Positions 427 through 18,349 of a stretch of 20,000 bases of DNA are shown one piece after another; the stretch's first letter is position 1; the number at the start of each line of letters is the position of its first letter. The notes below the pieces were generated by a model that was not told the DNA's origin, searched no databases, and saw only the letters and a program-made list of their open reading frames with translations. The stretch is from sequence record DRR723986_5317; one strand, written 5' to 3'. A program made the translations under genes and the position numbers.

Positions 427-1192
427 AGTCATCCTTATCATCTAAAAAGCGTAACTTATTTCTATACTTTTTTATATGATCTTTTTCTAAGGTGATAATT
501 TCTGTCATTTCTTTATTAGGAACAGAATTATCAATTCTGTTACCAAAGACATCGTATACTCCTGAGTGCCCTGGATATTCATAATTTGAACCATCTAAGC
601 CAATTCTATTAACACCAATACAATAAGACATATTTTCTATAGCGCGAGCTTTAAGCAATGCATCCCAGGCACTAATTCTCGGTTTTGGCCAATTTGCAAC
701 ATAAAACAATAAATCATAATCTTCTGTATTTCTTGCCCAAACAGGAAATCTCAAATCGTAGCAAATAAGTGGACAGATTTTCCAATCCTTATATTCTAAA
801 GTAATTTTATGTTTACCTGCGGTATATACCTTATGTTCTCCAGCTAAAGTAAAGGTATGTCGCTTATCATATTGGGTGATTTTCCCAGATGATTCAACAA
901 ATACGAGTCGGTTATAATAATTGCCATTTTCTTCAATAACTAAACTCCCAGTAATGGCGCATTGTTTTTTTTGCGCATGCGCTTTTAACCAAGAAATAGT
1001 TATGCCATTCATGGTCTCTGCAACCGCCGTAGCATTCATTGTAAAACCAGAGGTAAACATCTCAGGTAAAATAATAAGATCAACACTTGTTTTAATAGCA
1101 TTGATCTTATCATCTAATTGTAGTCTATTTTCTTCTGGATTTTCCCAGATTAAATTTGTTTGTATTACAGCAACTGTTAGGGAATTGGCCAT
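410..1192 (-). CDS. yafV: Nitrilase-family amidohydrolase (omega-amidase, YafV-like)
   Basis: Glu-Lys-Cys triad contexts LPEMF, YDKRH and ICYDLRFP, plus ANWP and ARAIEN. Start moved to ATG 1192 (MANSLTVAV), 2 nt after the stop of the reconstructed upstream gene. Confidence 0.85.
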   Translation of the reverse strand: MANSLTVAVIQTNLIWENPEENRLQLDDKINAIKTSVDLIILPEMFTSGFTMNATAVAETMNGITISWLKAHAQKKQCAITGSLVIEENGNYYNRLVFVESSGKITQYDKRHTFTLAGEHKVYTAGKHKITLEYKDWKICPLICYDLRFPVWARNTEDYDLLFYVANWPKPRISAWDALLKARAIENMSYCIGVNRIGLDGSNYEYPGHSGVYDVFGNRIDNSVPNKEMTEIITLEKDHIKKYRNKLRFLDDKDDFSLKE

Positions 1193-1194
1193 TA

Positions 1195-1546
1195 TTATCT
1201 TCGTTTTACTCTCTTTTGAGCTGTTTCTAATTTTTCGGTTAGTTTTTCGATTTTTTCTAACCATTTACCTTCATCTACGGGGGATAACTTTCCTTTCTTT
1301 TTTAAACGCTCATGTTTTTTTTGCGCTTTTTCAGCTTTTTCCTGCATTTTCATTTTTTTTTGAAATTGCAGTAGCTTTAGTTAAAATGACTTCTTTTTCT
1401 TCTGCACTTAGCGATGCGGTAACATCTTCACCGTTAAGAAAAACTTTTTCTTTTTTTACTTCATAAACCTTTCCATCTTTTTCCACTTTTTGAGCAAAAG
1501 AGGATAACGAAAATGTGAATAATAAGAGTAAAATATAATATTTCAT
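1195..1546 (-). pseudogene. Small exported Lys/Glu-rich hypothetical protein, frameshifted at an A9 tract (real lesion or sequencing error)
   Basis: Signal peptide MKYYILLLLFTFSLSSFA-Q from ATG 1546. Removing one base from T9 at 1353-1361 gives a 116-aa ORF ending ...KMKMQEKAEKAQKKHERLKKKGKLSPVDEGKWLEKIEKLTEKLETAQKRVKRR with TAA at 1195-1197. Confidence 0.75.
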
Positions 1547-1598
1547 AATGTTTAATTTTGAGTTCAATTGTTGGACACAGAAAAGTACAAAAAGTAAC

Positions 1599-2741
1599 TT
1601 ATATAGTACATAATATTTCGGCTGCTTTAATTAAGGTTTCTTCTTTTTTTGCAAAACAGAATCGTAATACCTTATCGTCTTTACCATTTTCATTAAAAAC
1701 AGAAAGAGGAATAGAGGCAATTTTATAATCTTTGGTTAATCGTTTTGCAAAGTCAACATCATATTCATCTGTAATATTAGAATAATCTAACACCTGAAAA
1801 TAGGTGCCTTTAGATGGAGTAAATTCAAATTTAGAATCGGCAATAAGATTTAAAAATAAATCGCGTTTATGCTGAAAAAATTCATCTAGTTCAAGATAAG
1901 TTTTTGGTTCTTGCATATAATCTGCTATGCCTTTTTGCGCTGGATGATTGACAGAAAACACATTAAATTGGTGCACTTTTCTAAATTCAGTCATGAGTTC
2001 TTCAGGTGCACAACAGTAACCAATTTTCCAGCCAGTATTATGAAAAGTCTTTCCAAATGAAGCAGTTATAAAACTGCGTTTTTTTAAATCATTAAATAGG
2101 CAAACGCTGTGGTGTTGTTCGTTGTCAAACACAATATGTTCATAAACTTCATCACTCAATACGATTATATCAGTATTTTCAGTAAGCCTTTGAAGTTCTA
2201 GTATGTCATTACTAGACCACACTGTTCCACTTGGGTTATGTGGGGAATTGATAATTATCATTTTCGTTTTACTATTAATTTTAGTAGCAACGTCTTCCCA
2301 ATCAATATTGTAGTTCGGTGCAGATAATTGTATTGGTACACAATTGCCACCATTAATTTCAACGGCTGGTTGATAACAGTCATAGGCAGGTTTGAAAATA
2401 ATGACTTCATCAGTAGGTCTTATAAATGCAGAAACAATTGTGTAAATAGCTTGAGTTGCTCCTGCTGTAACTGTAATTTCTTTTTCAGGATGATAAGTAG
2501 AATTATAAAGAAGTTGGTATTTATTGGTAATTACCAATCTTAAATCTAAATTACCTGCCATAGGAGCATATTGATTATAACCATTATTCATGGCATTACT
2601 TAATAAGTCATTCAACTTTTGAGAGCTCGGATAATTAGGGAATCCTTGAGACAGATTAAGCGCATTATGTTCTTTCGCCAAGGCACTCATTACAGTGAAA
2701 ATAGTTGTGCCAACATTAGGTAGTTTAGAATTAAAATTCAT
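1599..2741 (-). CDS. ybdL: PLP-dependent methionine aminotransferase (YbdL-like, class I/II)
   Basis: SKLPNVGTTIFTVMS, NLSQGFP, NSPHNPSG, SDEVYEH and the PLP-lysine motif SFGKTFHNTGWKIGY. Start moved to ATG 2741. Confidence 0.88.
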   Translation of the reverse strand: MNFNSKLPNVGTTIFTVMSALAKEHNALNLSQGFPNYPSSQKLNDLLSNAMNNGYNQYAPMAGNLDLRLVITNKYQLLYNSTYHPEKEITVTAGATQAIYTIVSAFIRPTDEVIIFKPAYDCYQPAVEINGGNCVPIQLSAPNYNIDWEDVATKINSKTKMIIINSPHNPSGTVWSSNDILELQRLTENTDIIVLSDEVYEHIVFDNEQHHSVCLFNDLKKRSFITASFGKTFHNTGWKIGYCCAPEELMTEFRKVHQFNVFSVNHPAQKGIADYMQEPKTYLELDEFFQHKRDLFLNLIADSKFEFTPSKGTYFQVLDYSNITDEYDVDFAKRLTKDYKIASIPLSVFNENGKDDKVLRFCFAKKEETLIKAAEILCTI

Positions 2742-2823: not shown

Positions 2824-4914
2824 ATGCGATTCATTAAAATACTATTCTTTTTTATCGTTTTTCAGATTTCTGCACAACAGGGAGGTATGTGGATTCCTTC
2901 TCTTTTAGAAGGTATGAACGAAAAAGAAATGCAAAATTTAGGAAGTAAATTAACCGCTAAGGATATTTACGATGTCAATAATTCTAGTTTAAAAGATGCT
3001 ATAGGTCATTTTAATGGTGGTTGTACAAGTGAAGTTATTTCTCCCAAAGGATTGTTATTAACAAACCATCATTGTGGTTTCAGTCAGATTCAATCTCACT
3101 CTTCGTTAGAAAATGATTATTTAAAAGACGGTTTTTGGGCTATGTCATTTGAGGAAGAAATACCAAATGAAGGATTATTTGTTGAATTTATTGTTAGAAT
3201 AGAAGATGTAACTTCGGCTATGCTACAAGGCGTTAATGATGTTATGACACCGCGCGAAAAGCAATCTCAAATTGATAAAAACCGAAATAGAGTTGAAAAA
3301 AACGTGAAGAAAGAAGCTTGGCAAGGCATAAAGATTACACCATTTTATAAAGGGAATCAATATTTCTTATTTGTGACAGAAAGATTTGAAGATGTGCGTT
3401 TGGTAGGTGCTCCACCAAGTAGCATTGGTAAATTTGGTAGTGATACTGATAATTGGGTATGGCCAAGACATACAGGTGATTTTTCAATTTTTAGAATCTA
3501 TGCAGATAAAAATAACAGACCGGCAAAGTACAGCAAGGATAACGTGCCTTATAAGCCAAAACATTTCTTACCTCTTTCATTAGACGGTATTGAGGAAGGT
3601 GATTTTACAATGGTTTTTGGTTTTCCTGGACGTACCAACGAGTACTTACCTGCTGTAGCTGTAGAGCAAATCACTAAGAAAGTGAATCCTGCTAAGATTG
3701 CTATTAGAGAAGCGGCATTAAAAGTTATAGATGCTAATATGAAAACTAATGACCAGATTAGAATTCAATATGCTTCAAAGCAAGCACGTATTGCGAACTC
3801 TTGGAAAAAGTGGATAGGTGAGAATTTAGGTATAGAAAAAAGTGGCGCAATAAAGATTAAACAAGATTTTGAAAGTGAGTTTAAAAATGCTTTAAAAGCC
3901 TAAGGTAAAGAAGAGGTTTATGGTAACTTATTAACTGACTTTAATAAACTTTATAATGAATTTGAAGCTGTAAATATTAAGAGAAATCAATTTGTAGAAG
4001 TTTTTCTAAGGACTAATGAACTTATGCAAATGATGTTTCGCTTGGCACAGATGGAAATGTCTGCTCAACGAGGCGAAGAAGCTTTTGAAAAGGCGAGAAC
4101 TTCAATGGTAAATAGACTAAAAGGGATTCACAAAAATTATGATGTAAGTGTAGATAAAGGAGTATTTGAGGCTGTAATGCCAATGTATAAACCCAATAAT
4201 AGTGATGCCTCTATATATGAAACTACCGCATTCACAAAATTAGAAAGTGCACTAAAAATTTTAGAAGGCGACTCAAAAAAGGTTCTAGAAAAGTTAAATG
4301 CAGATACGGCTTACCAATTTGCAAAGCCTATGGTTTTAGAATTTTACATGACTTTAGAGCCAGAATTTCAGAGAATAAACACTCAAATAAATGGCCTGCA
4401 GACTACTTACATGAGAGCACTGATGGAGGTGATGCCAGAAGCGCGTTATTTTCCAGATGCCAATAGTACAATGCGTGTAACCTATGGAAAAGTTAACGGT
4501 TATTCTCCGAGAGATGCTGTGTATTATAATCCTGTAACCTATTTAGATGGTGTTATTGAAAAGTACGTGCCAGGCGATTACGAATTTGATGTGCCACAAA
4601 GATTAATAGATTTATATGAAGCTAAGGATTACGGTCAATATGCTGATAAAAATGGAAAGTTGCCAATTTGTTTTTTAGGCACAAACCACACCACAGGAGG
4701 TAATTCTGGAAGTCCAGCTATTGATGCTCAAGGTAATTTAGTTGGTCTTAATTTTGATCGTGTTTGGGAAGGAACGATGAGTGATATTTATTATGAACCG
4801 GAAATTTGCCGAAACATAATGGTAGATTTACGTTATGTACTCTTTATAATTGATAAATATGCTGGTGCGAAGCATCTAATTGACGAAATGGAATTGGTGC
4901 GTCCTAAACGATAA
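2824..4914 (+). pseudogene. S46-family dipeptidyl peptidase (DPP11-like) interrupted by one in-frame TAA at 3901-3903
   Basis: ORFs 2824-3903 and 4024-4914 share a frame and the 40 intervening codons contain no stop. Signal peptide plus GGMW, catalytic His (TNHHC), DTDNWVWPRHTGDFS, and catalytic Ser (TTGGNSGSP). Confidence 0.88.
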
Positions 4915-6944: not shown

Positions 6945-7574
6945 ATGCCACTGTACAAATCCATTAATGTAAACTCACAAACTGCTGTTAAAATCTGGAG
7001 GATTGAGGAGTCTTATAATGATTTATTAAAACCATTAGATTTAAAACCTAATAGTATTGAGCGTGTTTTAGGTATGAAAAGTGAAATACACCAACGTGGT
7101 TTTTTGAGTGTTCGGCATTTGCTTAGAGAATTTGGATACACGGATAAGGATTTGTTTTATGATAAAAATGGTAAACCTCACCTTAAAGATGGCAAGCATA
7201 TTTCTATTACACATTCTTTTTCGTTTTCTGGAGTGATTGTCAGTGATAAAGAAGTAGGAATTGACATAGAGAAACAACGCGAAAAAATTGCAATCATAGC
7301 TAAGAAGTTTATCGATTATGAATTTAAATATCTCAACACTTCTGCTAAAGATTACATAAGATACTTAACCGTTATTTGGGGAATTAAAGAATCGTTATAT
7401 AAACTTTTTGCAACACCAGGAATGCTGTTTAAAGAGCATTTTTTAGTGATACCTTTTATGCTAAATGATAAAGAAACAGTGGCTTGGATAGACTATAAAA
7501 ATAAAAAGTACAGGTTCAACACCGCCTTCTTAGAATTTGAAGGTTTCACGTGTGCCTATGTTGTCCCAGAATGA
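6945..7574 (+). CDS. 4'-phosphopantetheinyl transferase superfamily protein (Sfp-like)
   Basis: GKPHL, ISITHS, VGIDIE and WGIKESLYK motifs. Confidence 0.9.
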   Translation: MPLYKSINVNSQTAVKIWRIEESYNDLLKPLDLKPNSIERVLGMKSEIHQRGFLSVRHLLREFGYTDKDLFYDKNGKPHLKDGKHISITHSFSFSGVIVSDKEVGIDIEKQREKIAIIAKKFIDYEFKYLNTSAKDYIRYLTVIWGIKESLYKLFATPGMLFKEHFLVIPFMLNDKETVAWIDYKNKKYRFNTAFLEFEGFTCAYVVPE

Positions 7575-8296
7575 ATAATATATACCAGAACATATTAAAA
7601 TCAAGCTCTAAGTCAAAGAAATTATTGGCGGTATTAATTGACCCTGATAAAATGATGGTTGAACATGTATCAGACTTTGTCGCTAAGGTAAATGAATGTA
7701 TTGCTACTCATATTTTCGTAGGTGGAAGTGAAGTAAGTAATGGTGCTACTGAACTTATTGTCGAAGAAATTAAGAAACATACTAATTTACCAGTAATTTT
7801 ATTCCCTGGAGATATTATTCAAATTACAGAAAAAGCAGATGCACTCTTGTTTTTATCTTTAATTTCTGGCCGAAATCCAGATTATTTAATAGGGAAACAA
7901 GTAGAGGCTGCACCACTAATAAATTCATCTAATTTAGAAACTATACCTACAGGATATGTGCTTATTGAAAACGGTAAGCAAACTGCTGTAGAACGTGTAA
8001 GTAATACCCAACCATTAAAGCGAAATAATAAGGTTGCCATATTAAATACGGCCTTAGCAGGTGAGTTTTTAGGTATGAAATTAATTTATCTTGAAGCTGG
8101 TAGTGGAGCAACACATCCAATAGAACCTGAGATTATTGAAAAGGTAAAAAAGGAATTAAACATACCATTAATTGTTGGTGGTGGTATAAGAACAAAAACA
8201 GCATTGGACTCAGCATATGAGGCAGGTGCAGATTTGGTAGTTATTGGTACAGCATTTGAAAATGATGAAAACTTTTTTAATCGACTAAAACGATAA
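7571..8296 (+). CDS. Geranylgeranylglyceryl/heptaprenylglyceryl phosphate synthase (GGGPS/PcrB family)
   Basis: LIDPDK, VGGS, LFPG, SLISGRNP, YLEAGSGA and VGGGIR. Start ATG 7571 overlaps the PPTase stop (ATGA). Confidence 0.92.
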   Translation: MNNIYQNILKSSSKSKKLLAVLIDPDKMMVEHVSDFVAKVNECIATHIFVGGSEVSNGATELIVEEIKKHTNLPVILFPGDIIQITEKADALLFLSLISGRNPDYLIGKQVEAAPLINSSNLETIPTGYVLIENGKQTAVERVSNTQPLKRNNKVAILNTALAGEFLGMKLIYLEAGSGATHPIEPEIIEKVKKELNIPLIVGGGIRTKTALDSAYEAGADLVVIGTAFENDENFFNRLKR

Positions 8297-8297
8297 C

Positions 8298-8558
8298 ATG
8301 AATATATCTGTTGAACTAACATTATCTCCCTTACAAAATGACTACGAAAAGCATATTATTAATTTCATCATAAGTCTGAGAGAGTCTGGATTTACTGTGT
8401 TAGAGAATCCATTAAGCACTCAAATTTATGGCCATTATGATGCCTTAATGCCATTTTTAACAAAAGCAATTAAAACGTCTTTTTTAGACTTAGATATTGC
8501 TGTATTACAAATGAAGGTTGTAAAAACAGACCGAAGCAATTATGAGCCAGATTTTTGA
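8298..8558 (+). CDS. Small thiamine-binding-protein-like (YkoF/MTH1187 ferredoxin-like fold) protein
   Basis: 86 aa with the ISVELTLSPL ... NPLSTQIYG.YD pattern, directly upstream of pnuC. Confidence 0.6.
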   Translation: MNISVELTLSPLQNDYEKHIINFIISLRESGFTVLENPLSTQIYGHYDALMPFLTKAIKTSFLDLDIAVLQMKVVKTDRSNYEPDF

Positions 8559-9174
8559 TTTTTTATTTGGGCAATATTCAGACTATCAGACTATAGATAT
8601 TGTATTAGAGATTGTAGCTGTAGTTTTTGGGTTTTTATCAGTTTGGTTCTCTAAGCAGAATAATATTTGGGTTTTTCCAACAGGTATGATAAGCACTGCA
8701 ATATTTGTTTATTTGCTATTAAAATGGGAATTGTTAGGTGACATGATGATTAATGGTTACTATTTTGCAATGAGCGTTTATGGTTGGTATATATGGACAA
8801 GAAAAATTGACGCAACACATGTAACTCCAATATCAAAAACTTCAAAAAAAGAAAAATTAATAAGTATTACTATCTTCTTTGCAACACTTTTATTCGTTTT
8901 TACAGTTTATAAAACATTTGACAAATGGACAAGTTGGGTAGCATATGTAGACACAATCACAACAGCTATTTTCTTTGTTGGTATGTGGCTTATGGCTAGA
9001 AGAAAAATTGAAAACTGGATTTTTTGGATTATAGGTGATGTCATATCTGTACCTTTGTATTTGTATAAAGGGTTTACTTTTACAAGTTTTCAATATTTAG
9101 GATTTACAGTTATTGCCATATTTGGATATTTAGCATGGAAGAAGCACTTAAACAACAACCTTCAATCTGCATAA
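8542..9174 (+). CDS. pnuC: PnuC-family vitamin/nucleoside transporter (nicotinamide riboside or thiamine)
   Basis: Multi-pass membrane protein with YGWYIW, DTITT, ARRKIENWIFWIIGD and GYLAWKK. Confidence 0.88.
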   Translation: MSQIFDFLFGQYSDYQTIDIVLEIVAVVFGFLSVWFSKQNNIWVFPTGMISTAIFVYLLLKWELLGDMMINGYYFAMSVYGWYIWTRKIDATHVTPISKTSKKEKLISITIFFATLLFVFTVYKTFDKWTSWVAYVDTITTAIFFVGMWLMARRKIENWIFWIIGDVISVPLYLYKGFTFTSFQYLGFTVIAIFGYLAWKKHLNNNLQSA

Positions 9175-9704
9175 AAGTAGTGTTATTTGGTCCGGAATCT
9201 ACTGGTAAAACAACGCTATCAAGACAATTAGCAAGGTATTATAATTCGGTTTGGGTACCAGAATATGCGCGTGAGTATCTTCAAAATAAATGGGATAATG
9301 AGCGAAAAACCTGTGAACCTAAAGATTTGCTGCCTATTGCAATAGGGCAAATGAAATTAGAGAATGATTTAGCGCAAAAAACGGATACAGTGTTAATTTG
9401 TGATACAGACTTATTAGAGACAAAGGTTTACAGTGAAGCTTATTACGATGGCAGTTGCGATCCATTACTAGATAAATATGCAAATGAAAACACTTACGAT
9501 TTATATTTTTTAACATATATTGATACGCCTTGGGAAGCAGATGACCTCAGAGATAGACCAAAAGAAAGAGAGCGTATGTTTAAGGCTTTTAATGATGCTT
9601 TAATTGACCATTCTAAACCATTTGTGCTACTTAAAGGGAATAAGGAAGAACGCTTAGCTTTAGCTACAAAACATATTGATAAATTACTAGAACAGCGTAA
9701 ATGA
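9135..9704 (+). CDS. NadR-like P-loop kinase (ribosylnicotinamide-kinase-like, AAA_28), stand-alone domain
   Basis: Walker A GPESTGKTT, VPEYAREY, CDTD and PWEADDLRD. No N-terminal HTH or NMN adenylyltransferase domain. Confidence 0.85.
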   Translation: MEEALKQQPSICIKVVLFGPESTGKTTLSRQLARYYNSVWVPEYAREYLQNKWDNERKTCEPKDLLPIAIGQMKLENDLAQKTDTVLICDTDLLETKVYSEAYYDGSCDPLLDKYANENTYDLYFLTYIDTPWEADDLRDRPKERERMFKAFNDALIDHSKPFVLLKGNKEERLALATKHIDKLLEQRK

Positions 9705-11257
9705 ATTTTTCAGAAAAAGATATAAAACAAATAGAACAAAAAGGATTAACACTAAAAGATGTTGAATCACAGATAGCGGTATTTAAATCTGGTATTCCAT
9801 TTTCTAATATTGCAGAAGCAGCTACTAATGAACACGGAATAATTGTTCTAAATGAGGATATTGTAAAACAATCTGTTGAAACCTTCGAAGCAAATAAAAA
9901 CAATTTATCACTGTTGAAATTTGTTCCAGCTTCAGGTGCGGCTACGAGAATGTTTAAGTTCCTTTTTAGGTTTGTAAAAGAATATAACCCAGATAAAGAA
10001 TCCATTAACTCTTACATCAATAAAAACAAACTTAAAGACCTATCCTTATTTTTAGTAGGATTAGAAAAATTTCCTTTTTACAATGAAGTCTTAGAGCATC
10101 TAGAAGAAAAAGGTGTAGACTTTAATGAATTGTCAACGAGCAAAAAGGCGTGGCATTTTGTACATGCCATGTTAGATGAAGAACAACTTAATTTTGGAAA
10201 TTCCCCAAAAGGATTATTGCCATTTCACGAATATAAAAATGATCATATTTCTACTGCATTTGAGGAGCATCTTTATGAAGCCGCACTATATGCAAGTGAT
10301 GATAATAATGCTAAACTTCATTTTACCATTTCAGAAAGATTTAAGGATAAGTTTGATGAAGAGTTTAAGCGTATCGAAGAGCATGTAGAACAGAAAACAG
10401 GTGTCTCCTTTGATATTGACTTCTCATACCAGCATGAATCTACAGATACCATAGCTGTTACACTAAATAATGAACCTTTTAGAGATGATGGTAATTTATT
10501 ATTTAGACCATCTGGGCACGGAGCCTTATTAAAGAATCTCAACAGTCTAGATGCAGATATTATTTTTATTAAAAATATAGATAATGTTGTAGTAAAAAAG
10601 TACAAAGATGAGGTGGCTAAATACAAAAAAGTCTTAGCAGGTATATTACTTCAACTACAATCAAAGGTGTTTAGTTTCTTAAATGAACTTGAAAAGCCTG
10701 ACCTTTCAGAAGAAAAACTAATTGAGATTGCAGAGTTTTTAACTCGAGAATTAAATGTGAAGATTTCACATGAATTTGAAAAGTACTCTGATAAATATAA
10801 AATAGAATACTTACGAGAAAAATTAGACAGACCAATAAGAGTCTGTGGTATGGTTAAAAACGAAGGAGAACCTGGTGGTGGGCCTTTTTGGGTAAAAGAT
10901 CAAAGCTGGAATTTATCATTACAAATAGTAGAGTCTGCTCAAATAAATCAAAAAGACAGGTTTCAAAAGGAAATTTTAATGAATGCCACACATTTTAATC
11001 CGGTAGACTTAGTATGTGGTGTAAAAAACTATAAAGGAGAGAAGTTCAATCTTGAAAATTATATAGATCATAAAGCGGCTTTTATCACTAAAAAAACAAA
11101 AGTTGGTAAAGATTTAAAGGCCTTAGAATTACCTGGTTTGTGGAATGGCAGTATGGCATATTGGAATACTATTTTTGTTGAAGTACCAATTATAACTTTT
11201 AATCCTGTTAAAACAGTAAACGATTTACTTAAAGCACCACATCAAATTAAAACCTAG
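9701..11257 (+). CDS. DUF4301 family protein, probable nucleotidyltransferase
   Basis: KFVPASGAATRMFK, PKGLLPFH, FRPSGHGAL, FIKNIDNV, GEPGGGPFW, THFNPVDLVC, ALELPGLWNGSM and TFNPVKTVNDLL. Confidence 0.85.
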   Translation: MNFSEKDIKQIEQKGLTLKDVESQIAVFKSGIPFSNIAEAATNEHGIIVLNEDIVKQSVETFEANKNNLSLLKFVPASGAATRMFKFLFRFVKEYNPDKESINSYINKNKLKDLSLFLVGLEKFPFYNEVLEHLEEKGVDFNELSTSKKAWHFVHAMLDEEQLNFGNSPKGLLPFHEYKNDHISTAFEEHLYEAALYASDDNNAKLHFTISERFKDKFDEEFKRIEEHVEQKTGVSFDIDFSYQHESTDTIAVTLNNEPFRDDGNLLFRPSGHGALLKNLNSLDADIIFIKNIDNVVVKKYKDEVAKYKKVLAGILLQLQSKVFSFLNELEKPDLSEEKLIEIAEFLTRELNVKISHEFEKYSDKYKIEYLREKLDRPIRVCGMVKNEGEPGGGPFWVKDQSWNLSLQIVESAQINQKDRFQKEILMNATHFNPVDLVCGVKNYKGEKFNLENYIDHKAAFITKKTKVGKDLKALELPGLWNGSMAYWNTIFVEVPIITFNPVKTVNDLLKAPHQIKT

Positions 11258-11661
11258 TGGATATTGATGCGTTAAAATCCGAATTAAGCTTTAAAGCTGT
11301 TAGAAGTTCTGGTAGTGGTGGCCAAAATGTAAATAAGGTAGCGACCAAGGTAGAACTCTACTTTAATATTTCAGAATCTAATGTATTTACTGATGAGCAA
11401 AAAGATAAATTAATTAGAGTTTTAAAAAGTCGAATTAATAAAGACGGTATTTTAATTTTAAGCTCTGGTGAAAGTCGTAGTCAATTTAGAAATAAAACTA
11501 TTGTTACAAACCGATTTATTGAACTTGTTAGAGCAGCATTAAAAGAGGAAAAACCACGTAAAAAAACCAAAGTACCTAAAGCCGTAAAGTTGAAACGTTT
11601 AGAGCAAAAGAAAAAAGCATCTGAAAAGAAGGCAAATAGAAAGCCACCAAAACTCAATTAA
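11257..11661 (+). CDS. arfB: Alternative ribosome-rescue peptidyl-tRNA hydrolase ArfB
   Basis: RSSGSGGQNVNKVATKV (GGQ motif), RSQFRNK and a basic C-terminal tail. GTG start overlaps the upstream TAG. Confidence 0.93.
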   Translation: MDIDALKSELSFKAVRSSGSGGQNVNKVATKVELYFNISESNVFTDEQKDKLIRVLKSRINKDGILILSSGESRSQFRNKTIVTNRFIELVRAALKEEKPRKKTKVPKAVKLKRLEQKKKASEKKANRKPPKLN

Positions 11662-11714: not shown

Positions 11715-11791
11715 GTTCTCAAAAAAGGGGTGCCAAAAAGTGGCTGAGATCATACCCATTGAACCTAGAACAGGTAATGCTGTTTAGGAAA
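11715..11791 (+). ncRNA. TPP riboswitch (THI element)
   Basis: GGGGTGCC...GGCTGAGATCATACCCATTGAACCTAGAACAGGTAATGCTGTTTAGGAA carries the GGGG..CTGAGA..ACCC..GAACCT..GTAATGC..AGGA consensus and lies upstream of a TonB receptor. Confidence 0.93.
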
Positions 11792-11893
11792 TAAAAGAAT
11801 TTGTTGCCCTATTTATGCAGCGAGTTCATAATTTATCAATTATTAACCAAGAATAATTACCTCTTTTTATTCGATTATAAACATATAGTCGTA

Positions 11894-14095
11894 ATGAAAT
11901 TTAGTATTCTTAAACTTAAATCTAGTTTCTTTATTTTCTTATTTAGTATCTGTTCAGTTTTTGGGCAGGAAAAACAACAAGATTCAACCAAAGTAGAAAA
12001 GCTAGATGAAGTCTTAGTGAAATCAGTTAGAGTAGATGCAAAATCTCCAATTACACACTCTAATGTATCCAAAGCGGAGTTAGCGAAGCGTAATCTTGGT
12101 CAGGATATACCTATTCTATTAAACTTTTTACCTTCAGTGGTAACAACAACAGATGCTGGAGCTGGAGTGGGTTATACAGGCATAAGGGTTAGAGGTGTAA
12201 GTCCACAGTCAACCAATATTACAATTAATGGTATTCCTTATAACGATGCAGAATCTTTAGGAACATTTTGGGTAAATCTAGGTGATTTTGCGTCGTCGGT
12301 TGAAAGTTTACAATTACAGCGAGGTGTTGGTACCTCTACTAACGGATCTGGTGCGTTTGGGGCAAGTATTAACGTTCTAACAGATGCTGTTTCAAGGGAA
12401 GCTACAGGAGAAATCTCAAATTCGTTTGGAAGTTTTAATACCAGAAAGCATACCGTTAAGTTTAGCACTGGGTTATTAAATGACCATTTTGAAATCGCTG
12501 GTCGTTTATCTAATATATCATCATATGGCTATATAGATAGAGCATCAGCAGATTTAAAATCTTATTTTTTACAAGCCTCTTATGTTAATACTAATACCTT
12601 GATAAAAGCGATTGCTTTTGGTGGTAATGAAGTAACATACCAATCTTGGTATGGCATAGATGGTGAAACATTAAAGAAAGACAGAACTTTCAATTTCGCT
12701 GGTATTTATACCGATGATGACGGGAATACTAGGTTTTATGATAATGAAGTGGATAATTATAGTCAAGATCATTATCAATTACATTGGAATCAGCGTTATG
12801 ACAATAATTGGTCAACAAATCTAGGTCTCAACTATACCTATGGTCGTGGTTATTTTGAGCAATTTAGAGAGGACGATGATTTTTCAACTTATGGATTTGA
12901 AGAACTAAATGTAAATGGTGAAACAGTAAATACTACCGATTTAATCCGCCGTCGCTGGTTAGATAATGACTTTTACGTTGTCAATGCTAGTGTAAATTAT
13001 AAGAATGATGAGATAGACATGATTTTTGGTGGGTCTTATAGTCATTATGATGGTGATCATTTTGGTGAAGTTATATGGGCCGAATTTGCCAGTCAGAGTG
13101 ATATAAGAGATCGATATTACGATGGTAATAGTATAAAGAATGATTTATCGGTTTTCTATAAAGCTAATTACAGGCTCAATGATAAATTGAGTTTATATGG
13201 TGATGTTCAGGTTAGAAATGTAACTTATGAAACTACTGGAACAACTTCGGATTTAGTGCTTTTTGAAGTCGATGAAGAATTTACTTTCTTTAATCCAAAG
13301 GCAGGTATTAGTTTTGAACTCAATGATGCAAATAATTTTTATTTCTCTTATGCCAGAGCAAATAGAGAACCAAACAGAACCGACTTTGAAAGTAATCCGA
13401 ATATTAAACCAGAAGAATTAAATGATTTTGAGTTAGGTTTGAGGCATAAAAAAGGCAACTTTACTTTTAATGCTAATGCTTACTATATGTTGTATAATCA
13501 GCAATTAGTCTTATCCGGACGATTAGATGATGTAGGTAATCCAATAAGAACAAACAGCGGTGAAAGTTATCGTTTAGGTATAGAGTTAGAAGCAATTATA
13601 CCTGTAACTCCAAAACTTACGCTTCAACCTAACATGACTTTAAGTTCAAACAAAAATAGAGCGACTAAAATATTCAGAGATGGTTCTCCAGATCCTATAA
13701 ATTTAGGAAAAACAGATATTTCATTCTCACCAGACTTGGTTGCAGCAAATGCTATAGTATTTCAACCAATAAAAAATCTGCAAATGTCACTATTAAGTAA
13801 ATTTGTAGGTGAACAGTATATGAGTAATACTGAAGCAAAATTATCAAAATTAGATAGCTTTTTTGTAAATGATTTTAACATTACTTACACCTTAAAAACC
13901 ACATCTATTTTTGATTCAATTGTTTTTAGCGGATTGGTAAATAACATATTTAATGAGAAGTATGTATCTAATGGATACTATTTTACCTTTGATGATGATT
14001 TCTCAAATCCAGGAACTATAACTACTGTAGAAGGAGCAGGATTTTATCCGCAGGCAACTACTAACTTTTTAGTAGGAGTTACACTGAATTTCTAG
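11894..14095 (+). CDS. TonB-dependent outer-membrane receptor, probably for thiamine
   Basis: Signal peptide, TonB-box-like LDEVLV, plug (GQDIP...DAGAGVGYTGIRVRG...QRGVGTSTNGSGAFGASIN) and C-terminal Phe (VTLNF). TPP riboswitch upstream. Start moved to ATG 11894. Confidence 0.9.
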   Translation: MKFSILKLKSSFFIFLFSICSVFGQEKQQDSTKVEKLDEVLVKSVRVDAKSPITHSNVSKAELAKRNLGQDIPILLNFLPSVVTTTDAGAGVGYTGIRVRGVSPQSTNITINGIPYNDAESLGTFWVNLGDFASSVESLQLQRGVGTSTNGSGAFGASINVLTDAVSREATGEISNSFGSFNTRKHTVKFSTGLLNDHFEIAGRLSNISSYGYIDRASADLKSYFLQASYVNTNTLIKAIAFGGNEVTYQSWYGIDGETLKKDRTFNFAGIYTDDDGNTRFYDNEVDNYSQDHYQLHWNQRYDNNWSTNLGLNYTYGRGYFEQFREDDDFSTYGFEELNVNGETVNTTDLIRRRWLDNDFYVVNASVNYKNDEIDMIFGGSYSHYDGDHFGEVIWAEFASQSDIRDRYYDGNSIKNDLSVFYKANYRLNDKLSLYGDVQVRNVTYETTGTTSDLVLFEVDEEFTFFNPKAGISFELNDANNFYFSYARANREPNRTDFESNPNIKPEELNDFELGLRHKKGNFTFNANAYYMLYNQQLVLSGRLDDVGNPIRTNSGESYRLGIELEAIIPVTPKLTLQPNMTLSSNKNRATKIFRDGSPDPINLGKTDISFSPDLVAANAIVFQPIKNLQMSLLSKFVGEQYMSNTEAKLSKLDSFFVNDFNITYTLKTTSIFDSIVFSGLVNNIFNEKYVSNGYYFTFDDDFSNPGTITTVEGAGFYPQATTNFLVGVTLNF

Positions 14096-18229: not shown

Positions 18230-18243
18230 TAAAGACAGAATTG

Positions 18244-18282
18244 AATAAAAAACTTGCTCTTGTGGAGCAAGTTTTTTTATTT
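18244..18282. terminator. Bidirectional intrinsic terminator after DUF3127
   Basis: AAAAAACTTGCTC-TTGTG-GAGCAAGTTTTTTT, flanked by A and T tracts. Confidence 0.85.
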
Positions 18283-18287
18283 AAACT

Positions 18288-18316
18288 AAAAAAGTCCCGA
18301 TGGTTAGTCGGGACTT
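18288..18316 (-). terminator. Minus-strand intrinsic terminator closing the sRNA candidate
   Basis: Minus strand AAGTCCCGA-CTAACCA-TCGGGACTT-TTTT, a perfect 9-bp stem with a U tract only in this orientation. Confidence 0.75.
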
Positions 18317-18345
18317 AATATTGTGGTTTTAGGTTTTGACCTCTA
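18288..18345 (-). ncRNA. Candidate ~57-nt small RNA
   Basis: Bounded by TTTG-N18-TAAGTTTG upstream and an oriented terminator. No ATG within it. Confidence 0.5.
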
Positions 18346-18349
18346 CAAA

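Follow-up and report, generated by a model that had tools for sequence, protein, structure and literature searches.

The locus described here, in a stretch of 20,000 nucleotides from sequence record DRR723986_5317 that was analysed in full (hereafter the window), raises the question of what a protein of the DUF4301 family does directly behind a vitamin transporter and a kinase. Four open reading frames (ORFs) on the plus strand overlap by 17, 40 and 4 nt in turn, as the ORF coordinates and translations confirm for a preliminary description of this DNA. They encode a small YkoF/MTH1187-like protein (Pfam Thiamine_BP; 86 residues; 8298..8558), which starts the overlapping set, an inner-membrane vitamin transporter of the Pnu family and of PnuC/PnuT type (PF04973, NMN_transporter; 210 residues; 8542..9174), a P-loop kinase resembling the ribosylnicotinamide kinase (RNK) part of NadR (PF13521, AAA_28; 189 residues; 9135..9704), and DUF4301 itself (PF14134; 518 residues; 9701..11257), a predicted nucleotidyltransferase with the fold of the UDP-sugar pyrophosphorylases (UDPGP). 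The explanation that we consider best, with a probability of roughly 55%, is that DUF4301 is a UDPGP-fold enzyme that is situated in a thiamine uptake operon and acts on an endogenous phosphate ester.

The window protein matches PF14134 at profile positions 2-507 of 507 (E = 9.4e-217, 721.3 bits, above the gathering score), and all four motifs that had been read from its translation are present, namely ASGAATRM (residues 77-84), PSGHG (270-274), FIKNIDN (289-295) and FNPVKTVNDLL (500-510). In an alignment of 43 family members, which are 39-65% identical to the window protein, these motifs occupy invariant or near-invariant columns; H273, N292, D294, N295 and K504 are invariant, and the check for conserved catalytic residues thus came out in favour of the His, the N.DN and the PVK lysine throughout the family. 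The motif order had been likened to that of UDP-sugar pyrophosphorylases, and a bona fide bacterial UDPGP (L131; 437.7 bits to PF01704) indeed shows GGLGTGMG, PPGHG, FISNSDN and FAPVKTTNDLL in the order found in DUF4301. Because the motifs are near-invariant in the family and recur in this order in L131, they are, on the evidence of these alignments, more than chance matches. They are also identical in DUF4301 proteins that are linked to Pnu genes, unlinked, fused to the kinase, fused to receiver-PP2C domains or fused to an isomerase-like domain.

At the level of sequence profiles, PF01704 was matched at E≤1 by 15 of the 43 members (best E = 1.4e-6), every other family being matched by one member only, and P0121 alone exceeded the PF01704 cut-off (27.8 bits vs 22). 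These matches are colinear, with residues ~393-515 falling on UDPGP positions 235-347 in 11 proteins and residues ~250-317 on positions 159-222 in two, and the PF01704 genome scan gave a weak signal on the DUF4301 genes of two genomes (G219 and G033). Profile-profile alignment of DUF4301 with 24 bacterial UDPGP proteins by hhalign yielded a probability of 68% and E = 4.7e-5 in local mode, which was the informative one (global mode: probability only 0.06). A permissive alignment paired, in order, PGGHG with PPGHG, NIDN with NSDN, GEPGGG with DKKGG, VExAQ with REsAQ and FNPVKTVNDLL with FAPVKTTNDLL, and left the first glycine-rich motif unpaired. H273 and K504 align to the PPGHG and FAPVK of bacterial UDPGP. 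Their counterparts in the UGP of T. brucei (TbUGP), His192 and Lys377, are described as contacting phosphates, Lys377 being equivalent to the catalytic Lys367 of potato UGP (PMC3270307). A search by sequence of the chains in the PDB, with the single protein as well as with the profile, gave no match to DUF4301. Separately, frames of ~1113-1231 residues in seven genomes (L132-L138) show a partial UDPGP match at positions ~160-295 with 26-44 bits.

The fold was evaluated with an AlphaFold2 model built on the 43-sequence alignment (predicted local distance difference test score 93.4; predicted template modelling score 0.92). Foldseek found 93 matches in the PDB at E≤0.001, the top ranks listed being all UDP-glucose or UDP-N-acetylglucosamine pyrophosphorylases, with the best E of 1.7e-10 for the UDP-glucose pyrophosphorylase (UGP) of A. 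thaliana. Among the 50 structural matches of the VIA-align list, which was restricted to Foldseek's top chains, yeast Ugp1p (2i5k_B) reached a Z of 23.4 over 325 aligned residues (root-mean-square deviation 3.8 Å). The first 48 entries were all UGP, UAP/AGX or UDP-sugar pyrophosphorylase (USP) structures (Z 17.9-23.4; 322-348 residues), followed by GlmU at Z 16.9. All 50 listed matches were of UDPGP/GlmU type and included no nicotinamide mononucleotide (NMN) adenylyltransferase of the HIGH-motif kind (NadD, NadM or the adenylyltransferase domain of NadR). The UDPGP-family nucleotidyltransferase fold, for which the preliminary description had advised a check with AlphaFold and Foldseek, is thus borne out by the model, according to which DUF4301 belongs, as a deeply diverged branch, to the UDPGP structural family. 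Since the catalytic machinery of that family is kept, DUF4301 most likely transfers a nucleoside monophosphate from a nucleoside triphosphate (NTP) to a phosphate-bearing acceptor, releasing pyrophosphate.

The proteins encoded upstream of DUF4301 bear on what the operon imports. The kinase matches PF13521 at residues 14-173 (E = 5.5e-44, 150.7 bits) and the NadR model TIGR01526 only at positions 161-320 of 325, i.e. in the C-terminal RNK part; the NadR structures 9x6f, 1lw7 and 8x7f likewise match at 1e-13 to 1e-15 with their C-terminal domains only. By Pfam and NCBIfam, the 189-residue protein lacks the N-terminal HIGH-type NMN adenylyltransferase domain, in agreement with the earlier claim that this NadR-like protein is a kinase only. 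In a tree it groups with other short Pnu-linked kinases (support 1.0). One such Pnu-linked AAA_28 kinase, in a single genome (L149, genome G159, 1063-2508, minus strand), is fused to an aldose-1-epimerase domain in a protein of 481 residues. A second AAA_28 paralogue of flavobacteria was set aside because its branch is remote from the Pnu-linked kinases and its gene adjoins that of a RecQ-like helicase. This placement is conserved at L184-L193, with genes for DUF493, DUF4290 and a MurA-like protein in divergent orientation; the four paralogues that were scanned scored 144-161 bits.

The transporter matches PF04973 (E = 2.7e-55, 187.4 bits), TIGR01528 (95.8 bits; cut-off 42.45) and the PnuC structure 4qtn (3.1e-7). 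Its WIFWIIGD fits the motif WxxW(x)3D/N that is described for transmembrane helix 6 of Pnu transporters (PMC5749112). A tree of 49 Pnu proteins split into two clades with 100/100 support. One holds all five PnuC proteins that adjoin long NadR-like proteins (weak CTP_transf_like plus AAA_28); the other holds the window transporter together with five of the six sampled transporters linked to thiamine pyrophosphokinase (TPK), and the sister of the flavobacterial group is the Pnu protein of a TonB-dependent receptor (TBDR)-TPK-Pnu locus (84/87). The small protein that starts the overlapping set matches PF01910 weakly (E = 0.0021, 18.4 bits, under the cut-off of 24.9). All 23 aligned orthologues hit PF01910 at E≤1 (the best at 2.9e-8), 17 of them also hit Ykof (PF07615), and the family profile matches the PDB entries 2ibo (8e-6), 2eky and YkoF 1s7h. 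By these profile matches it is probably a member of the YkoF/MTH1187 family, a thiamine-binding family. Its gene is present in 47 of the best 80 genome loci, nearly all from Flavobacteriaceae, to which all counts out of 80 refer.

Downstream of the overlapping genes, an element resembling a thiamine pyrophosphate (TPP) riboswitch (GGGGUGCC...CUGAGA...ACCC...GGUAAUGC; 11716..11807, plus strand; RF00059) scored 42.1 bits (E = 2.3e-5), under the gathering score of 54.3. The element is also found at the orthologous position of three relatives, with 45.1 bits in L001, 45.0 in L034 and 39.1 in L053. In the window it is followed on the same strand by a gene for a TonB-dependent outer-membrane receptor with Plug and TonB_dep_Rec_b-barrel domains, OMthi-like by its position (11801..14095), the true start of which is probably the ATG near 11894 (MKFSILKL...). 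A TonB receptor gene lies downstream in 56 of 80 loci. Outside the flavobacteria, Pnu and the short kinase are directly followed by a TPP riboswitch, and this by a receptor gene, in four of 12 loci, distant orders included; three of these riboswitches score 61-72 bits, above the gathering score (L157, L160 and L149, the last with 61.4 bits and located downstream of the kinase-epimerase fusion), and that of L156 scores 40. No riboswitch was detected at E≤0.001 upstream of loci with TBDR, PnuC and a long NadR.

A further indication came from gaps in the thiamine pathway. We analysed 12 genomes with Pnu and the short kinase (G001, G002, G179, G251, G239, G203, G219, G283, G299, G295, G223 and G167); these and all other Bacteroidota genome counts given here are samples, in which absence from a draft genome is not proof of absence. 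ThiL was present in 12/12 genomes, TPK and ThiN in 0/12, ThiD above cut-off in 0/12, and ThiE above cut-off in one. Eleven of the 12 therefore have ThiL without TPK, ThiE, ThiN or ThiD, i.e. without a known source of thiamine monophosphate (ThMP), which a thiamine kinase beside the transporter would supply. This orphan ThiL points to an unrecognised thiamine kinase, and on the basis of these pathway gaps we propose the AAA_28 kinase as the candidate for the missing step. TPK was found in none of eight marine flavobacterial genomes with the full cluster and in all 11 Flavobacterium-type genomes, including the kinase-less G191, G207 and G267.

Given the family of the first gene, the transporter tree, the riboswitch context and the pathway gaps, we consider it somewhat probable that the transporter-kinase pair is an uptake-and-trapping module for thiamine and not for nicotinamide riboside (NR), and the NR import of the preliminary description has become doubtful in the face of these four independent context signals. 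In the proposed pathway, an OMthi-like TonB receptor under the TPP riboswitch would import thiamine across the outer membrane, and thiamine would then cross the inner membrane via the PnuT-like transporter, the YkoF-like binding protein participating in some way. The AAA_28 kinase would convert thiamine to ThMP, and ThiL would convert ThMP to thiamine diphosphate (ThDP).

Several observations weigh against this thiamine reading or against the assignment of DUF4301, and we collect them here. The TPP element lies downstream of the transporter and kinase genes and so cannot regulate them in the usual way. The TIGR01528 match names the transporter PnuC, and the closest characterised relatives of the kinase are ribosylnicotinamide kinases. 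TPK-linked as well as kinase-linked members occur in each of the two Pnu clades, so that the phylogeny leaves the substrate unfixed and the tree is only suggestive. Eleven of the 12 genomes encode proteins of the YjbQ family, which are reported to have weak thiamine-phosphate synthase activity; because ThiD is absent, these proteins would lack hydroxymethylpyrimidine pyrophosphate. ThiK of the E. coli type was absent above cut-off from both genomes searched (G001 and G002), and all pathway gaps were read from relatives of the window, the nearest being G001 with a DUF4301 76% identical. An unrelated 4'-phosphopantetheinyl transferase (PPTase) gene is kept in 70 of 80 loci, which makes synteny alone weak evidence. 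As to DUF4301, the window protein does not match PF01704 at E≤1 and is hence below its gathering score of 22 bits, and the lysine of the sugar-binding loop (Lys256 of TbUGP, KGG motif) has no counterpart in the profile alignment, where GEPGGGPFW stands opposite ADKKGGHLA.

Next we consider how tightly DUF4301 is tied to the transporter and the kinase. Upstream of DUF4301, 74 of the 80 loci have Pnu and 65 have the kinase. Of the 40 loci in which both ends were placed, 34 have the start of DUF4301 overlapping the stop of the kinase, in most cases by 4 or 1 nt, and by this gene layout DUF4301 is translationally coupled to the kinase in Flavobacteriaceae. Fusions of the two fall into the separate 50% clusters P0126, P0133 and P0189, with P0051 in addition. 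In a tree of DUF4301 proteins with 108 rows, one Flavobacterium clade (support 1.0) unites 21 fused loci and 10 kinase-less Pnu-DUF4301 loci, a topology suggestive of what was in essence a single fusion event, after which the kinase part disappeared at least three times. The set of 110 loci contains some regions twice (e.g. L073 and L084), and the fusion count leaves out L031 and L039, which scored as fused, as their DUF4301 stretch reads with a stop. Pnu and DUF4301 are kept in G267, in which no AAA_28 gene was found genome-wide, and DUF4301 is kept where both Pnu and kinase are lost (L019, L022).

Across the phylum the association is looser. DUF4301 occurs in at least 603 species genomes, including Bacteroides thetaiotaomicron, and in 50 of 301 sampled Bacteroidota genomes. 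By coordinates, the kinase is adjacent or fused in 16 of these 50 (fused in eight), Pnu alone is adjacent in three, and DUF4301 is unlinked in 31. Any Pnu gene is present in 35/50 DUF4301 genomes compared to 97/251 of the others, and any AAA_28 gene in 33/50 compared to 85/251, a count that includes the unrelated RecQ-linked paralogue. The kinase-DUF4301 linkage that had been claimed hence holds for the Flavobacteriaceae, where the genes are coupled and in Flavobacterium often fused, and fails at the level of the phylum, where most genomes have DUF4301 unlinked to the kinase, a finding that had been named in advance as speaking against the salvage pathway. The neighbours of unlinked DUF4301 genes are mixed and include RelA/SpoT, 5-oxoprolinase subunits, STAS and receiver-PP2C genes and, once, galactokinase.

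Other partners of DUF4301 were also observed. In another Bacteroidota lineage, P0391, P0392, P0393 and P0395 are fusions of DUF4301 with a receiver and a PP2C (SpoIIE) phosphatase domain; STAS and receiver-SpoIIE genes are divergent beside DUF4301 at L122, L124, L125 and L127, and an RsbW-like ATPase gene is nearby at L126. Judged from gene content, partner-switching signalling is a second, independent conserved association of DUF4301. P0253 and P0394, of 909 residues each, carry a cupin region resembling mannose-6-phosphate isomerase N-terminal to DUF4301; both match MPI_cupin_dom only weakly and below its cut-off (E = 2.7e-5 and 0.013), P0253 is named class I mannose-6-phosphate isomerase by one source, and it gave no match to PDB sequences.

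What, then, is the acceptor of DUF4301? The catalytic motifs are the same in every context and are identical without transporter and kinase, whose loss DUF4301 survives; this speaks for a single reaction on a metabolite available to cells that lack the transporter, and an endogenous phosphate ester is thus the most likely substrate. Its identity is the least certain part of this analysis. A sugar-1-phosphate is the foremost single candidate, yet short of an even chance; thiamine mono- or diphosphate comes next, some other compound is a little less probable, and NMN is improbable. The pathway first envisaged, in which NR enters via PnuC, is phosphorylated by the kinase to NMN and is then adenylylated to NAD by DUF4301 as a non-orthologous replacement of the missing NadR adenylyltransferase, is unlikely in our estimation. 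The kinase is homologous to the RNK domains of NadR, the kinase-DUF4301 fusion would mirror the long NadR-like proteins found beside PnuC in other Bacteroidota, and NMN, being produced endogenously, would fit DUF4301 without a transporter. However, the genomic context is thiamine-flavoured, outside Flavobacteriaceae the short Pnu-linked kinases mostly lack an adjoining nucleotidyltransferase, the kinase was lost at least three times while Pnu-DUF4301 remained, and we know of no UDPGP-fold enzyme that uses NMN. Nor is there a gap in NMN adenylylation for DUF4301 to fill, as had been supposed: NadD and CinA/PncC are present in all five related genomes G001-G005, so that NMN is already routed to NAD and an NR route would be complete without DUF4301. 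Still less probable, to the point of being a marginal reading, is that DUF4301 serves chiefly in ligand sensing or regulation and not as a metabolic enzyme. The four receiver-PP2C fusions and the STAS, receiver-SpoIIE and RsbW-like neighbours at L122 and L124-L127 would fit such a role, but no form, the PP2C fusions included, departs from the catalytic motifs, as expected of an active enzyme.

Two further readings concern other acceptors. DUF4301 may have a housekeeping role as a sugar-1-phosphate nucleotidyltransferase, in which case its fusion and its place in the operon would be a historical accident of compact, overlapping genes; we give this less than even odds. Sugar-1-phosphates are the substrates of all characterised structural relatives, two fusions join DUF4301 to the isomerase-like domain, a galactokinase gene lies 54 nt upstream of DUF4301 on the same strand in L064, and DUF4301 is unlinked with mixed neighbours in 31 of 50 genomes and kept after the loss of Pnu and kinase in L019 and L022. 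The unrelated PPTase and ArfB genes are equally syntenic, and to turn the 4-nt ATGA overlap into a fusion needs a change of 1 nt only. Of the 91 Bacteroidota genomes scanned for a canonical GalU (TIGR01099; G002 and G006-G095), one had a match above cut-off, and a full-length PF01704 protein was present in 1 of 301; as GalU was this rare regardless of DUF4301, their complementarity gave no signal. On the other hand, DUF4301 itself occurs in only 50 of 301 genomes and so is not a general source of UDP-glucose, the fusion persists in at least 21 loci, and the protein carries ~180 residues of insertions and lacks the sugar-loop lysine. A role as a substitute for GalT was rejected, as the two are not anticorrelated (GalT in 16/50 DUF4301 genomes vs 60/251). 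More doubtful is that DUF4301 nucleotidylates a thiamine phosphate, either the ThMP of the kinase or ThDP, to an adenosine or other nucleoside thiamine di- or triphosphate. In its favour, gene fusion and translational coupling tie DUF4301 to a probable thiamine kinase, the chemistry would be that of UDPGP, a phosphate attacking the alpha-phosphate of an NTP, and ThDP is universal and would fit DUF4301 without a transporter. The reaction is unprecedented in the UDPGP fold family, however; riboswitches were found near unlinked DUF4301 genes in 0/15 loci, DUF4301 is not associated with TPK (27/50 vs 125/251), and its other fusion partners point elsewhere. A review describes adenosine thiamine triphosphate (AThTP) as made by a ThDP adenylyl transferase and gives synthesis of adenosine thiamine diphosphate in vitro as not shown (PMC8615392). 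E. coli is reported to make AThTP (PMC2881022), and DUF4301 was not found in E. coli, which served as control. That DUF4301 makes a thiaminylated nucleotide and, jointly, that its RNK-like partner is the missing thiamine kinase of TPK-less Bacteroidota we consider improbable as a combination.

The remaining genes surround this core on the same strand. A gene for a peptidyl-tRNA hydrolase of ArfB type (11257..11661; NF006718, 126.6 bits, cut-off 100) abuts DUF4301 and lies downstream of it in 52 of 80 loci; it is probably co-transcribed with DUF4301 without functional relation. Genes for the PPTase and a PcrB-family prenylglyceryl-phosphate synthase (6945-8296, plus strand; Pfam/NCBIfam) have a mutual overlap of 25 nt and stop 1 nt short of the 86-residue ORF, and the compact same-strand run may thus comprise seven genes, from PPTase and PcrB through ArfB. 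The closest named homologues are from Winogradskyella. Elsewhere in the window, a Peptidase_S46 gene (dipeptidyl-peptidase 7/11-like; 2824-4914, plus strand) is cut in two by an in-frame TAA at 3901-3903; the frame continues (...KNALKA*GKEEVYG...), with profile positions 3-339 and 434-697 matched on either side, and the TAA may reflect a nonsense mutation, an error of sequencing or a site of read-through. After a DUF3127 gene, positions 18241-18348 gave weak matches on both strands to unrelated small RNA and leader models (best STnc370, 40.5 bits, E = 0.011), probably a hairpin or terminator. A tRNA search of the window found none.

Together, these results give a widespread Bacteroidota family a fold, a probable chemistry and candidate catalytic residues. 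They also expose a pathway hole, as many marine flavobacteria and other Bacteroidota keep ThiL without the tested routes to its substrate, for which the Pnu-linked RNK-like kinase is a concrete candidate thiamine kinase; this bears on how vitamin B1 auxotrophy is read from genomes. If the acceptor should prove to be a thiamine phosphate, DUF4301 would be the first gene assigned to thiaminylated-nucleotide synthesis and would open the genetics of adenylated thiamine derivatives. A literature search, with subscription journals outside its coverage, found no paper on the function of DUF4301 and none on an RNK-like thiamine kinase; the one paper found to name the family is a rumen metaproteome study, a table of which lists a DUF4301 protein of Prevotella ruminicola (PMC7035244). 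Judged against this literature, DUF4301 is a branch that has diverged from the other UDPGP enzymes in architecture and probably also in its acceptor, and which we infer to be embedded in a variant thiamine uptake module.

The comparison with known systems shows what is shared and what differs. With the UDPGP pyrophosphorylases (Ugp1p 2i5k, Leishmania UGP and USP, human AGX1), DUF4301 has in common the fold and, in the same order, the glycine-rich nucleotide loop, GHG, N.DN, the GG loop and F.PVKT.NDLL. The sequences are only 13-19% identical, ~180 residues of DUF4301, for the most part in helical insertions at about 83-158 and 299-375 of the model, remain unaligned to the UGPs, the C-terminal domain of UGPs appears absent, with matches stopping near residue 400 of the UGP chains, and the sugar-loop lysine of UGPs is replaced.

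The NR salvage system PnuC-NadR of enterobacteria, Haemophilus and Lactococcus likewise places a Pnu transporter beside a P-loop kinase of RNK type, which is described there as trapping the imported vitamin (PMC5749112, PMC2330246). Unlike that system, the window has no NMN adenylyltransferase domain, its transporter belongs to another Pnu clade than the NadR-linked PnuC of Bacteroidota, and the pair is flanked by a TPP-riboswitch-like element and a gene that probably belongs to a thiamine-binding family. Closer in layout are the operons of gut Bacteroidetes in which OMthi, pnuT and the pyrophosphokinase gene tnr3 are reported under TPP riboswitches (PMC5613172), an arrangement of TBDR, TPK and Pnu that we also found in L162 and L176. 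The window resembles these operons in combining a Pnu transporter with a kinase for trapping and in having a TPP riboswitch ahead of the TonB receptor gene. They differ in that the kinase of the window is of AAA_28/RNK type instead of a thiamine pyrophosphokinase, in that the riboswitch follows the transporter and kinase genes instead of preceding them, and in that DUF4301 and ArfB are inserted between kinase and riboswitch. The thiamine kinase of E. coli, ThiK, has the role that is proposed for the window kinase, converting thiamine to ThMP for ThiL to turn into ThDP; ThiK is a phosphotransferase-family protein and not a P-loop kinase, and its fold is unrelated to that of the window kinase.

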